A stretch of 32,000 nt of DNA. Origin: Candidatus Jordarchaeales archaeon (lineage in GTDB: Archaea > Asgardarchaeota > Jordiarchaeia > Jordiarchaeales > Freyrarchaeaceae). A program made the translations under genes and the position numbers. The number at the start of each line of letters is the position of its first letter. The stretch's first letter is position 1. Where the stretch lies: positions 344,499 to 376,498 of the forward strand of contig JAWAHN010000001.1 in NCBI GenBank assembly GCA_038889235.1, in the 5' to 3' direction. The notes under the pieces were generated by a model, which worked only from the letters and a program-made list of their open reading frames with translations, had not been told where the DNA came from and made no database searches. Positions 20,894 through 28,200 of the stretch are shown one piece after another.

Positions 20894-22372
20894 GTGAGGC
20901 TGCCGGTACTCCACGGCGACAAGGTGGTTGTCGAGGAGTTCCCCGAAGAAACTGTTGTTCTAACTTCTCCTCCTACGCTGCAACCTCTCGAAAACCCCAC
21001 TGCAGCTGTACGTGAAGCCATAGAGAATCCTTTAAACGAGCAACGGTTTAGCGAGCTGTTAGGTGAGTGCAGGAACATCGTTCTGGCGTTCGACGATCCC
21101 GTCCTCCCCATACCGATCCCCAGAGAGGATCCCAGGAAAATCGTCGTGAAAGAGGTGATGGCCGCCGCAGAGGAAGCGGGAGTCAGAGTTAAGCTTCTGT
21201 GCGCTAATGGCACGCATAGAAAGTGGTCTGAGAGGGAGCTGGCGGCTATCGTAGGAGACTTTGCCAAGCGTACGTTGTGCCACGATGCTGAGGACGAGAA
21301 GAACCTCGCCGATCTAGGGTCAGCGGACGGAGCGCCAGTTGTAATAAACAAGGAGGCCGCTGAAAGTGACCTACTCGTATACGTCAATGTTACTTTTACT
21401 CCGATGAATGGAGGCTGGAAGTCGGTTAACGTTGGGCTCGGATCGTACGAGTCTATAAGTTACCACCATAACCCGGACTCCTTTGGGCGGGGCCTTATGG
21501 AGCCCGAGGTATCAGAAATGCACAAGACACTGTGGAAGATGGGTAGGGTTGTTGAGGAGAACGTCAAGGTCTTCCAAATAGAGACAATTGTGACAAATAA
21601 TCTGCAGCCAAGCCTGTCACTGGTCGGCGGGGAGGGGCTGCGAGCCCCGTTAACTCTGAAAGCCTTCTCTCTGCTCCCAAGAAGAGTGAGGGACAAGCTT
21701 AGGGGTTTTGTCAGGGCGGCTTACAGGATGGCTTACGTCAAAGCTGGAAAAGTTGTAGATGTGCACGCTGAAACTCTGAGAGTCTTGAGAAAACAGCTCG
21801 AGTTAATGGTTGAGAAACAGTTCGACATAGTGGTTGCAGGCATCCCTAACATGAGCCCCTACGCCACGTTCTCCGTCCAGAACCCCATACTTTCCGCTAA
21901 CCTAGCTTTAGGGTACGCTTTCAGCTTCCTTAGCGTCGGAAAACCGCTCCTTAGAAAGGGCGGCGTATTTGTCTTTTTCAGCCCAATGGACGAAGTCTTC
22001 CACGAAGGGCACCACCCCTCATATGTGGAGTTCTACAAAATCCTAAGCGAAACACGCGACCCATGGGAGCTGCGCGAGAAGTACGAAAAGAAGTTTGCCA
22101 AGAACGAAAAGTACGTCAGGTTGTACAGGTATGGCTATGCGTACCATGGAGCACACCCGTTCTTCGTCTGGTATGCCATTAGGCCAGCGCTAGAACAGGC
22201 GTCTGCCGTGATAAACGTCGCCCCGTCAAACTCCAAGGTCCCCGAAAAAATGGGCTTCGAGTGGGCTAGAAACTTGCGCGAAGCGCTTGGTAAAGCTTAC
22301 AGCTACGTGGGGAAAGATGCGAGCATAGTATATCCCGCCATGCCGCCAATTTTCTGCACACGAGTGGGTTAA
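20894..22372 (+). CDS. LarA/DUF2088-family protein (divergent subfamily)
   Basis: A.ENPL, LAFDD, CANGTHR, HDAED, GGWKSV motifs. Confidence 0.8.
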   Translation: MRLPVLHGDKVVVEEFPEETVVLTSPPTLQPLENPTAAVREAIENPLNEQRFSELLGECRNIVLAFDDPVLPIPIPREDPRKIVVKEVMAAAEEAGVRVKLLCANGTHRKWSERELAAIVGDFAKRTLCHDAEDEKNLADLGSADGAPVVINKEAAESDLLVYVNVTFTPMNGGWKSVNVGLGSYESISYHHNPDSFGRGLMEPEVSEMHKTLWKMGRVVEENVKVFQIETIVTNNLQPSLSLVGGEGLRAPLTLKAFSLLPRRVRDKLRGFVRAAYRMAYVKAGKVVDVHAETLRVLRKQLELMVEKQFDIVVAGIPNMSPYATFSVQNPILSANLALGYAFSFLSVGKPLLRKGGVFVFFSPMDEVFHEGHHPSYVEFYKILSETRDPWELREKYEKKFAKNEKYVRLYRYGYAYHGAHPFFVWYAIRPALEQASAVINVAPSNSKVPEKMGFEWARNLREALGKAYSYVGKDASIVYPAMPPIFCTRVG

Positions 22373-22573: not shown

Positions 22574-22603
22574 GGAGGTGTGTTTCGTAAGTCAGGTGCT
22601 AAC

Positions 22604-23771
<1,168 letters not shown>

Positions 23772-23795
23772 AGTGGTGTTCGTGTGGTGATTGTG

Positions 23796-24227
23796 ATGGC
23801 GAATGAGGATGTAAGGCTTGGTATTGTCGTCTCCGAGTTTAACTACGACATAACATACCTAATGCTGCAAAGGGCACTGGACCACGCCGAGTTCCTCGGC
23901 GTAAAGGTTGTTAAAGTTGTTAAGGTTCCCGGCGTCTTCGACATGCCCCTAGCGGTCAAAAAGCTCTTGGAGAGGAACGACGTTGACGCAGTAGTTACAA
24001 TAGGGGCTGTCATGAAAGGTGACACAGACCACGACCAGGTTGTGGCACAGCACGCGGCGAGAAAGATTGTTGACTTGTCCGTGGAGTATAATAAGCCTGT
24101 GGCGCTGGGCGTCTCCGGTCCTGGGATGACTAGAATGGAGGCCATGGAGAGGATAGAGGAGTACCCGAGGAGAGCGGTTGAGGCCGCCGTGAAAATGGTT
24201 AGGCGCTTAAGGGAGATCTCAAAGTAG
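23796..24227 (+). CDS. ribH: 6,7-dimethyl-8-ribityllumazine synthase
   Basis: [49 protein letters not shown]; ATG 23796 with SD GGTGA. Confidence 0.95.
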
Positions 24228-24238
24228 GGGGGCCGCGC

Positions 24239-25003
24239 TTGATAAAGATAACATTGGTCCAGCTGGACAACTATGGTCCGTGGACTGAGGAGCTTGGAAA
24301 TGACAGGGAGGCGGACATTCAGGTTCTTCAGTCGGAGCTCTACGCCGACCTTCAGAGGATGTTTTCAGCCAGAGGTGGGCTACTCTTTTTCTCTCGTTTT
24401 GATAACATGCTGGCTGTCTCGAACGGTGTAAGCATCAGGGAGCACGAGATGATACTTAGAAGTGTGGCTAGAAGGTACCCTGTCACTGTGAGCATGGGCA
24501 TCGGATTGGGGGAGACGGCTTACGAGGCACAACGCGCTGCGACGCGAGCCCTACAGAGTAAGGGGAGCGCTCAGTCCTCTGAGAGGAGGGCTGTCTTAGC
24601 TTACAACGGTAATGGTGCGACGAAGGAGGGTTACGTCCAGATGGCACACATAGATGTCAACAATTTTACTGGAAACGTGACTGACAAAGAGGACGCTTAC
24701 AAGGCAATGTACCTCGTATCAAGTCTGACGACTATCCTGATGAAGCTTTCAATGGATAAGGGTGCGCTCACCTTCTTCAATGGCGGGGACAACTTCATAT
24801 CTGTGTGCAATGGGCTAACTGAGTGCGACTTTAGAGAGATTTTCGATAAACTTGAGACGAGCACAGGCTTAAAGTTCAAGGCTGGCGTCGGCTTTGGGAG
24901 GAACGCTTGCGAGGCGCTTGCGAGAGCGAACGAGGCGCTCTCCAGGATAAGAAGGGGGCTGACGAGAGAGCAAATACTGTTCCTAGGAGGACCGCCCGGG
25001 TGA
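24239..25003 (+). CDS. gch3: GTP cyclohydrolase III (IIa)
   Basis: QLDNYGPWT, READIQ.LQ, FFSRFDNM, HIDVNN.T, FNGGDN, LK.GVG.G. Confidence 0.93.
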   Translation: MIKITLVQLDNYGPWTEELGNDREADIQVLQSELYADLQRMFSARGGLLFFSRFDNMLAVSNGVSIREHEMILRSVARRYPVTVSMGIGLGETAYEAQRAATRALQSKGSAQSSERRAVLAYNGNGATKEGYVQMAHIDVNNFTGNVTDKEDAYKAMYLVSSLTTILMKLSMDKGALTFFNGGDNFISVCNGLTECDFREIFDKLETSTGLKFKAGVGFGRNACEALARANEALSRIRRGLTREQILFLGGPPG

Positions 25004-26139
25004 AGACGATATACTGCGAGTTCGGACTCATTGGAAAAGAGCTCGCCTTCGAAGAGAATGTCTATATTTCGTTTTCGAAAAACGGGTTCATAAAGGATGT
25101 TTCCCACACTCCGCCCGGAGGAGTGAATGAAGAGTATGTGTCTTGCCTTGTAATGCCGGGTCTGGTGAACGCGCACACCCACGTTGGAGACTCGTTCTTC
25201 AAGGAGGTAGGGTATAACTATAGCATAGATGAGCTGGTAGCACCTCCGCACGGACTTAAGCACAACTTGCTGGACTCCGTGCCGGAGAGGGAGATCAAGG
25301 AAGGAATAAAATGGGCTGCAGTTGAGATGCTGTCGTCTGGAACAACCACCTTCGCAGACTTCAGGGAGGGGGGTGTCAGGGGGGCGCTTATACTAAGGAG
25401 GGCGTTGGAGGACGTCCCAATTAAATGCCTCATTCTGGGTAGGGATCACACCAATATAGGCGACCTCTTGAAGGTGTGCGACGGGGTGGGGCTTCCTTCA
25501 ACTGTCCCCTACAGTGATGAGGAGCTTAGAATGGTGTATGAAGAGTGCAAGCTAAGGGAGGCGATAATTTCAGTCCACGCTTCTGAGACCGTGGATGAGA
25601 GGGAGAGGTCTCTCAGAATGCATGGCGTGACAGACGTGGTTAGAGCGGTGAACATCCTAAACGCAGATCTCTTAGTTCACTTGACTCACGTGAGCGATGA
25701 GGAGCTTTCCCTAGTCTCCGGGAGGGGGGTTGCGTGTTGCCCTCGGGCTAACGCCTACCTGGGCGTCGGTATTCCGCCCGTCGAAAAAATGGTGGAAGCG
25801 GGCGTTAAGGTTTGCCTTGGAACAGACAACGTGATGATAAACTCCCCAGACCTGTTTAGGGAAATGGACTTTTTGGGTAAGGTTGTTAGGGCTAGATCCG
25901 GTGTGAGGGCGCTGAGCGCGAAAAGCATACTGAAGATGGTCACGGTAAACCCGGCTGAAGTCTTAAAGCTGAACTCCGGGTGGATTGAGCGGGGGAGAGC
26001 GGCCGACATAGTGATAATAGACTTAGAGGCGCCCAACGTTAAACCGGTACACCACCCTTACCAGGCTCTTGTGCACAGGGTTAAGTCTGAAAACGTGGTC
26101 TCGGTTTACGTTAACGGGGTGAAAGTTCATGAGAAATAG
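25000..26139 (+). CDS. Metal-dependent amidohydrolase/deaminase within the riboflavin operon
   Basis: PGLVNAHTH.GD, HASE, LVHLTH, CPRAN, LGTDN; GTG 25000 overlaps the gch3 stop. Confidence 0.88.
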   Translation: MKTIYCEFGLIGKELAFEENVYISFSKNGFIKDVSHTPPGGVNEEYVSCLVMPGLVNAHTHVGDSFFKEVGYNYSIDELVAPPHGLKHNLLDSVPEREIKEGIKWAAVEMLSSGTTTFADFREGGVRGALILRRALEDVPIKCLILGRDHTNIGDLLKVCDGVGLPSTVPYSDEELRMVYEECKLREAIISVHASETVDERERSLRMHGVTDVVRAVNILNADLLVHLTHVSDEELSLVSGRGVACCPRANAYLGVGIPPVEKMVEAGVKVCLGTDNVMINSPDLFREMDFLGKVVRARSGVRALSAKSILKMVTVNPAEVLKLNSGWIERGRAADIVIIDLEAPNVKPVHHPYQALVHRVKSENVVSVYVNGVKVHEK

Positions 26140-26943: not shown

Positions 26944-28200
26944 ATGAAGGTTTGCTTGCCTCAGATGCCGTGGTTTGGAGACACCGTTTTAGAGTTGGAG
27001 TTCCCAGACGGGTGGGATGTCCACTTCTGCAGCATGGCTGGCGACGGGAAGCCTCCTTTGAGCAGGGAGCAAGTGTTGTCGGCTTTAAGGAACCCTGTGG
27101 GAACAAAGCCTCTGAGTAAGCTGGCTGAGGGTAGAGAGGAGGCAGTCATAATCTTCGATGACATGACTAGGCCGACTAGGGTCTACGAAATAGCCCCACT
27201 GGTGCTTGAGGAGCTGAGGAGAGGAGGAATTGGGGAAGACCACGTGAGGTTCATCTGTGCTAACGGCGCCCATGGAACCTTTGACAGGGAGGACTTCGCA
27301 AAGAAGCTTGGAGAGGATATAGTTGAAGGGTACCCTGTTTTCAACCACAACCCCTACAGCAACTTGGATTACCTGGGTCACACTAGGTATGGAACCCCCG
27401 TCGAGGTTAACTCTGAGGTGATGAGCTGCGACCTTAAGATTTGCATAGGCTCGATAGTGCCGCACCCGCAGTTCGGCTTCGGCGGAGGGGCTAAGATGAT
27501 CTTGCCGGGGGTGTCAAGCGTGAGGTCGATATCATTCAATCACGGCGACCTGGGTGGGTGGTCTGCTGCTTCAGATTACAGGGATTTGCACCCAAGTTGC
27601 CAGCTGGCCTATGGAAGGGTTAACGATGAGAACATAATGAGGAAGGACGCCGAGGAAGCTGCGAGAATGGTTGGAGTGGACATGGTGGTGAACGTCCTAG
27701 TAGACTTGAAGAGGAATTCTACGAACATATTTGCAGGGGACGTCGTGGAGGCGCAGAGGGAGGGGGTCAAGGAGGCGATGACCCATTATAGGGCACAGCT
27801 CGTCCAGAGCCCGGACATAGTTGTTTCAAACGCCTACTCGAAGGCTAGTGAGGCGACCATAGCGGCATGGCCCGCCGTCCTGCTTAAAGAGGGAGGAACC
27901 CTTGTGATAGTTTGTAACACGCCCACCGGGCAGGTTTCGCACTACGTGCACGGGCGATGGGGGGTTAAGAGGGTTGGAGGAAACCTTTGGCTTCCCCCGA
28001 CGAGGATACTTGACAGGGCCGGGAGGATAATAATCCTGTCGAGGTACCCGGAGAAACAGTACTGGCTCGAGATAGCACCCAAAGAGAAGACTCTCAAAGT
28101 GAAGACATGGGAGGAAGCGCTCGAGGAGCTTAGGAACGCGCATGGGGACAAGCCGAGGGTCGCAGTGTTCCCCGACGCGACGATACAGAAACCCTTCTAA
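26944..28200 (+). CDS. LarA-family nickel-pincer racemase/epimerase
   Basis: IIFDDMTRP, CANGAHG (His), VPHPQFGFGGGAKMILPGV (His, Lys). Confidence 0.87.
   Translation: MKVCLPQMPWFGDTVLELEFPDGWDVHFCSMAGDGKPPLSREQVLSALRNPVGTKPLSKLAEGREEAVIIFDDMTRPTRVYEIAPLVLEELRRGGIGEDHVRFICANGAHGTFDREDFAKKLGEDIVEGYPVFNHNPYSNLDYLGHTRYGTPVEVNSEVMSCDLKICIGSIVPHPQFGFGGGAKMILPGVSSVRSISFNHGDLGGWSAASDYRDLHPSCQLAYGRVNDENIMRKDAEEAARMVGVDMVVNVLVDLKRNSTNIFAGDVVEAQREGVKEAMTHYRAQLVQSPDIVVSNAYSKASEATIAAWPAVLLKEGGTLVIVCNTPTGQVSHYVHGRWGVKRVGGNLWLPPTRILDRAGRIIILSRYPEKQYWLEIAPKEKTLKVKTWEEALEELRNAHGDKPRVAVFPDATIQKPF

Follow-up and report, generated by a model that had tools for sequence, protein, structure and literature searches.

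Organization of the riboflavin operon

The window analyzed here, a stretch of 32,000 nucleotides from a Candidatus Jordarchaeales archaeon (assembly GCA_038889235.1, contig JAWAHN010000001.1, forward-strand positions 344,499 to 376,498), contains six close-packed genes on the + strand in the order ribB-ribC-ribH-arfA-amidohydrolase-arfC (Table 1). The fifth gene encodes an amidohydrolase and is the subject of this report. Its product is predicted, and we consider it probable, to be a pyrimidine deaminase of the archaeal type that serves the synthesis of riboflavin and of the F420 chromophore (FO). We first describe what was established directly, namely the structure of the gene, the fold class of the protein and its catalytic residues, its family membership, the conservation of gene order, and the phyletic pattern.

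The amidohydrolase gene overlaps both of its neighbors. Its GTG start codon at 25000 shares a 4-nt GTGA overlap with the TGA stop of arfA (25001-25003), and its TAG stop (26137-26139) lies beyond the ATG of arfC at 26129, which results in an 11-nt overlap. An AGGAGG ribosome-binding-like motif within the 3' end of arfA is positioned 9 nt 5' of the GTG. The start at GTG-25000, which gives a protein of 379 residues, agrees with the homologues, which are 378-379 residues long and align from residue 1; a longer frame from TTG-24907 is not supported. The reading frames of ribC and ribB also share 11 nt.

The product of arfC consists of a RibD_C domain only and covers just positions 139-340 of the bacterial RibD model TIGR00326. 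A Pfam domain search of the operon proteins revealed no creatininase/arfB-type gene in the rib operon of the window. The original prediction, made from the sequence alone, had described the two overlaps, an operon devoid of arfB and a reductase without a deaminase domain, and all of these features are confirmed here.

Table 1. Features of the riboflavin operon and the evidence for their assignment (window positions)
Feature	Position	Strand	Evidence
ribB	22580..23311	+	PF00926 9.8e-54; TIGR00506 222 bits, over cut-off
ribC, archaeal riboflavin synthase	23301..23771	+	TIGR01506 230.7 bits vs cut-off 100.6
ribH, 6,7-dimethyl-8-ribityllumazine synthase	23784..24227	+	TIGR00114 153 bits vs cut-off 84.6
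arfA, GTP cyclohydrolase III (GCH III)	24239..25003	+	PF05165 2e-88
AGGAGG ribosome-binding-like motif, within arfA 3' end	24985..24990	+	sequence reading
379-aa cog0402-type amidohydrolase, predicted pyrimidine deaminase (MJ0699/'PyrD' family)	25000..26139	+	NF005552, invariant residues, AF2, Foldseek
arfC, stand-alone archaeal pyrimidine nucleotide reductase, 227 aa	26129..26812	+	TIGR01508 238.9 bits vs cut-off 186

Family assignment, active site and predicted fold

The gene encodes a metal-dependent amidohydrolase of the cog0402 deaminase type. In Pfam, the protein matches Amidohydro_1 (7.7e-50) and otherwise only Amidohydro_3, with no homology to the creatininase fold (PF02633, NF033501) and no match to the CDA-fold deaminase domain PF00383. 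Among the NCBIfam models, NF005552 (PRK07213, 'chlorohydrolase') fits best, with 322.7 bits with respect to a cut-off of 294 and coverage of its positions 10-378 of 382; the nearest relatives carry the labels Jordarchaeales and Freyarchaeota. The protein was further compared with the NCBIfam equivalogs for deaminases of methylthioadenosine/S-adenosylhomocysteine (MTA/SAH)/5'-deoxyadenosine, guanine and 8-oxoguanine, and it scores far under their cut-offs (NF012037, 70.7 vs 779; NF005557, 102.8 vs 522; TIGR02967, 77.4 vs 375; NF006055, 96.7 vs 532).

An alignment of 15 diverse orthologues, which share 38-71% identity with the window protein, reveals that H59, H61, H193, E196, H227 and D276 are invariant, and five paralogues of the nucleoside-deaminase type, taken from other Asgard genomes, have the same catalytic residues. 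The complete HxH/H/H/D metal set proposed in the original prediction (H59/H61, H193, H227 and D276) is therefore present throughout this alignment. The HxH/HxxE/H/D set corresponds to that of the mononuclear cog0402 deaminases and lines up with the motifs in the solved chains, where HxH is placed after strand 1, the His of HxxE after strand 5, the next His after strand 6, and the Asp after strand 8. A second group of family-invariant residues, G63-D64-S65, G85, K87, R122-E123, R148, N277 and R360, is unlike the five Asgard paralogues. Among these, D64, K87, E123, N277 and R360 are retained in a divergent Thermoproteota copy that lies ~2.6 kb from arfC.

An AlphaFold (AF2) model, generated from the alignment of the 15 orthologues (pLDDT 93.6, pTM 0.93), displays a (beta/alpha)8 barrel and a small beta-sandwich that is built from both termini. 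A Foldseek search returned MTA/SAH/adenosine, isocytosine and guanine deaminases, together with AtzA/TrzN, as the best matches, with E values from 1e-30 to 1e-19 and TMq values of 0.74-0.89. All of the closest folds with solved structures belong to ring deaminases or dechlorinases that act on aromatic N-heterocycles, with identities of at most 27%. No solved structure for the amidohydrolase's own family was found in this structure comparison.

Conservation of gene order across archaea

The rib proteins of the window were compared with 80 loci from named genomes of several Asgard classes, Bathyarchaeia and Nitrososphaeria. The arfA gene is located immediately 5' of the amidohydrolase in 69 of the 80 loci, and the reductase gene immediately 3' in 73; the other seven comprise three loci without a reductase in the flank, three that are broken by a contig end, and one with the reductase 1.7 kb off. 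With one exception, these loci encode amidohydrolases that are just 35-54% identical to that of the window. The order arfA-amidohydrolase-arfC is found in Jord-, Frey-, Hel-, Hod- and Wukongarchaeia, Bathyarchaeia and Nitrososphaeria.

In one Helarchaeote genome, a cofH/cofG-like radical-SAM pair lies divergently beside the amidohydrolase and arfC genes. CofH and CofG consume the deaminated pyrimidine to form the F420 chromophore. Proteins of 665-2000 aa were searched for Rosetta-stone fusions that join the amidohydrolase to RibD_C or to a different rib domain; none was found at E<=1e-30, a result that constitutes weak evidence.

In Freyarchaeia, the gene cluster is extended by a creatininase-type (ArfB/BrbF-like) gene of 216-238 aa located 3' of arfC. 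One closed Freyarchaeial chromosome, for example, contains arfA (848260-848994), the amidohydrolase (849040-850146), arfC (850191-850820) and the creatininase gene (850863-851501) in succession. The creatininase gene also follows arfC in five further genomes and in loci L005-L007, L013, L023 and L024 (for example at L007:7836-8549, on a Freyarchaeota chromosome), and arfA and the creatininase gene adjoin in other Asgard genomes. Two arfC frames are interrupted: that of L005:3883-4518 (Jordarchaeia QZM_A3) has two in-frame stops, and that of G054:C109:44423-45043 has one TGA and one TAG in frame. These stops may represent an assembly error or a decaying gene.

Phyletic distribution

The distribution of the family was analyzed in a sample of 121 Asgard genomes with a completeness of 80% or more, with orthologues defined by a score of at least 200 bits on NF005552. 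Related genomes are non-independent observations, and the counts describe a pattern with no statistical test applied. The scores are bimodal: 47 genomes have an orthologue, and in the rest the scores are those of paralogues, under 120 bits, apart from a few intermediate ones. A stand-alone ArfC is present in 47/47 genomes with an orthologue, and its gene is adjacent in 44. Stand-alone ArfC occurs in 51 genomes, 47 of which have the orthologue and two more fragments of it. A bifunctional RibD over its cut-off was found in 0/121 genomes. The comparison with the ribD deaminase, which the original prediction had put forward as a check, yields a pattern in line with a deaminase function.

With regard to the first enzyme of the pathway, 16 of the 47 genomes contain ArfA, 11 contain RibA (GTP cyclohydrolase II, GCH II) without ArfA, and 20 contain neither. 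The pairing of the amidohydrolase with ArfC is independent of which GTP cyclohydrolase is used. In the 20 genomes that have the pair and neither cyclohydrolase (G008, G048, G055, G088, G010 and 15 others), no GCH III (PF05165) or GCH II (PF00925) is recognizable, for some of them at 99% completeness and at a threshold as loose as E<=10. The same holds for the control genome of Methanosarcina acetivorans.

Outside the Asgard archaea, all 15 genomes with the amidohydrolase in a sample of 81 Thermoproteota genomes have ArfC. Among the control genomes, 4/4 archaeal genomes match NF005552 at E<=1e-50; Methanocaldococcus jannaschii and M. acetivorans pass the cut-off of the model, and Haloferax volcanii and Sulfolobus acidocaldarius are matched at that E value. 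The bacterial control genomes have no NF005552 match at E<=1e-20.

Requirement for the deaminated product in the source genome

The source genome is 95% complete and has no match to the CDA-type deaminase domain PF00383 anywhere. It carries cofH/cofG and an archaeal riboflavin kinase, so that the deaminated product is needed and no other route to it is visible. The domain of the CTP-dependent riboflavin kinase (121 model positions) is located at C1:933463-933828, within a frame of 230 aa, and the extra ~100 residues of this frame may correspond to a winged-helix domain as in kinase/regulators of the RbkR type.

Two LarA-like genes (Lar_N, nickel-pincer-cofactor racemase/isomerase family) border the rib operon at 20894-22372 and 26944-28200. 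Both score under the cut-offs of every named LarA-homologue equivalog, and the gene 3' of the operon (26944-28200) is also found in locus L004.

Proposed reaction and alternative functions

The conserved operon, the co-occurrence with ArfC, the lack of a CDA-fold deaminase in the genome, and the HxxE active site of the deaminase type all point to a pyrimidine deaminase. We infer the substrate and a phosphate-holding role for K87/R122/R148/R360, and take the order of the steps from the biochemistry of M. jannaschii (Graupner et al. 2002, as cited in PMC5397151 and PMC8256712). The mononuclear-metal (beta/alpha)8 amidohydrolase would act on the product of ArfC, 2,5-diamino-6-ribitylamino-4(3H)-pyrimidinone 5'-phosphate, and hydrolytically swap its 2-amino group for oxygen, with 5-amino-6-ribitylamino-2,4(1H,3H)-pyrimidinedione 5'-phosphate and ammonia as the expected products. 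The chemistry is anticipated to be similar to that of guanine deaminase, with a metal-activated water and proton transfer by H227 and by the glutamate of HxxE, E196, and the family-specific basic residues K87, R122, R148 and R360 may hold the 5'-phosphate. In this role, the protein would take the place that an unrelated CDA-fold deaminase has in RibD of bacteria and Rib2 of fungi, and the overlapping reading frames may lead to its synthesis in fixed proportion with ArfA and ArfC.

Several observations weigh against this assignment. In Thermoproteota, 16 genomes with ArfC have no match at E<=1e-45, just weak or divergent look-alikes, and the family may thus not be universal or may be too divergent to call. 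Thermoproteales-type genomes have divergent proteins of 356-394 aa that are candidate orthologues. A look-alike from marine Actinomycetota (P0285, 421 aa, found in loci L085-L087 on metagenome contigs) reaches 254 bits on NF005552. Its neighbors, which include luciferase-like monooxygenases, HpaB, a CoA-transferase, a CN-hydrolase and other amidohydrolases, form a catabolic cluster without rib genes; this protein probably acts on a different substrate, implying that similarity at that level alone does not fix function. Bacterial look-alikes were rejected as independent support on account of this catabolic context without rib genes. In addition, the amidohydrolase is the sole cog0402-type gene of the source genome and may therefore have a second role as a nucleoside deaminase. 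Finally, the literature up to late 2026 yielded neither an enzyme assay nor a knockout for any member of the family, and the evidence for the assignment is contextual throughout.

An enzyme of the same class in the same pathway could instead act on another substrate, either the ribosyl intermediate before its reduction by ArfC, which is the sequence of steps in bacteria, or the ribityl compound after dephosphorylation. Gene context cannot order two adjacent steps, and the amidohydrolase is located 5' of arfC in nearly all loci. We nevertheless consider this unlikely, given that in M. jannaschii the diamino-ribosyl compound is reduced first, as concluded from experiments with extracts and MJ0671 (Graupner et al. 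2002, cited in PMC5397151 and PMC8256712).

It is also quite improbable that the protein is a nucleoside or base deaminase (for MTA/SAH/5'-deoxyadenosine, guanine, isocytosine or the like) that rides or moonlights in the operon. The closest solved structures are MTA/SAH/adenosine deaminases, with 21-27% identity, and the genome contains no second gene of the cog0402 type. Against this, the equivalog scores fall far under the nucleoside, guanine and 8-oxoguanine deaminase cut-offs, and the residues D64, S65, K87, R122, E123, R148, N277 and R360 set the family apart from the paralogues. Moreover, the gene order is kept across phyla, and the amidohydrolase gene stays beside arfC even in Asgard genomes with distinct paralogues of 437-508 aa.

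The pyrimidine deaminase could have a further function, either as a bifunctional enzyme that also deformylates the GCH III product or in a stable complex with ArfC, as a non-covalent and non-homologous counterpart of bifunctional RibD. This option arises from the loss, in the rib operon of this Jordarchaeial lineage, of a creatininase-type gene that is still found immediately 3' of arfC in the sister order Freyarchaeia, and we regard it as very unlikely.

The original prediction had left two functions side by side, that of the pyrimidine deaminase, which is the one best supported by the present data, and that of a non-orthologous replacement of ArfB that would convert AFRPP, the product of GCH III, to the diaminopyrimidine by hydrolysis of its formamide. 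The latter is disfavored and, in our estimation, most unlikely, although the window operon has no creatininase gene, the creatininase-family genes of the source genome miss the ArfB equivalog cut-off (best score of 38 bits vs 180), and amidohydrolases are able in principle to cleave amides. In the 11 Asgard genomes with the gene, ArfC and GCH II, and without ArfA, there is no formamide to remove. The suggested comparison with the distribution of arfB also turned out against a replacement, as the gene stands beside a creatininase-type gene in Freyarchaeia, in Jordarchaeia QZM_A3 and in some TACK operons. The HxxE motif, furthermore, is typical of ring deaminases.

The ArfB step of the source genome is plausibly covered by creatininase paralogues. 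Two creatininase-family (PF02633) genes are located outside the operon, at C2:325450-326133 and C1:231886-232629, and their products are 39% and 36% identical to that of the operon-linked Freyarchaeial gene. The ArfB model is narrow, with just 1/14 control genomes containing a protein that passes it, and the distant creatininase BrbF deformylates AFRPP (PMC9478397), which makes the two paralogues credible ArfBs. We rejected them as proven ArfB on the basis of their 36-39% identity and their scores under the narrow model.

Relation to the published candidate family and annotation

According to Rodionova et al. 2017 (PMC5397151), the deaminase domain of RibD is missing in Archaea, and chromosomal clustering and co-occurrence had led to the proposal of a candidate archaeal-specific pyrimidine deaminase, 'PyrD' (Osterman, Overbeek and Rodionov 2010); the prediction was awaiting a test at that time. 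HVO_2483, which is 34% identical to MJ0699, was later listed as that candidate, in need of experimental confirmation (Pfeiffer and Dyall-Smith 2021, PMC8305020). The statement in the original prediction that the archaeal deaminase is not firmly assigned is in agreement with these sources, and its suspicion that the linkage might already have been noted proved correct.

Several converging lines, based on elimination and on the control genomes, point to the window amidohydrolase and NF005552 being the MJ0699/HVO_2483 'PyrD' family. Every other gene of the thaumarchaeal and further rib operons has an assigned role, and the control genomes separate as described above, with the archaeal ones matched and the bacterial ones unmatched. 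The member from Methanotorris igneus reaches 582.6 bits on NF005552, and the model is thus centered on Methanococcales. The role name in use in SEED is 'Pyrimidine deaminase archaeal predicted (EC 3.5.4.26)'. The texts consulted name no protein family, and we take the SEED 'PyrD' role to be the NF005552-type family.

Deamination is one of the last reactions in archaeal riboflavin and F420-chromophore synthesis for which no enzyme has been assigned by experiment; to our knowledge, the other such steps are ArfB outside methanococci and the phosphatase. The new support provided here consists of the conservation of gene order, the co-occurrence with ArfC in Asgard genomes irrespective of the cyclohydrolase, and the lack of bacterial-type RibD in the sample. 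The phyletic data sharpen the published prediction and weigh against the ArfB alternative, by virtue of the strict coupling to ArfC whatever the GTP cyclohydrolase and of the creatininase-type genes in one and the same operon; the state of knowledge is otherwise unchanged.

The public names of the family are 'chlorohydrolase', 'amidohydrolase family protein' and 'cytosine deaminase', and these have spread into metabolic reconstructions. In Thaumarchaeota, COG0402 was read as the cytosine deaminase of creatinine degradation (PMC7848895). The sole strong COG0402 gene of ammonia-oxidizing archaea is the gene of the rib operon (for example G121:C8:232035-233195, of Nitrosopumilus type, in locus L019), and the reading in terms of creatinine degradation is probably a misassignment in these organisms.

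Comparison with known systems

The window amidohydrolase is similar in fold and catalytic set to the MTA/SAH deaminases TM0936 and PA3170, the isocytosine deaminase Vcz, the guanine deaminases, and AtzA/TrzN, with TM-scores of 0.81-0.89 when normalized to the query. It differs from these solved cog0402 enzymes in being ~50-80 residues shorter, in the residues that follow HxH, and in those of the DFREGG segment and of GTDN.

By contrast, the amidohydrolase is unrelated in fold and metal site to the CDA-fold (PF00383) deaminase domain found in bacterial RibD/RibG and in fungal Rib2. Rib2 catalyzes the same reaction that is proposed here, the deamination of the reduced ribityl intermediate (PMC8256712). 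Like the deaminase domain of RibD, the amidohydrolase is partnered with a RibD_C-type reductase, in this case encoded by a separate, translationally coupled gene and not as part of a fusion. ArfB (MJ0116) and BrbF, of the creatininase family, share with the amidohydrolase the archaeal riboflavin pathway and metal-dependent C-N hydrolysis; they have no relation to it in sequence or fold, and the creatininase-type genes are separate and coexist with it.

The closest counterpart is 'PyrD' (MJ0699/HVO_2483), which displays the same clustering and co-occurrence with riboflavin genes. The window amidohydrolase comes from an Asgard lineage outside the coverage of the 2017 'PyrD' study, and it is a well-supported new Asgard member of the published candidate family, which makes the present assignment a rediscovery of the 2010/2017 proposal.

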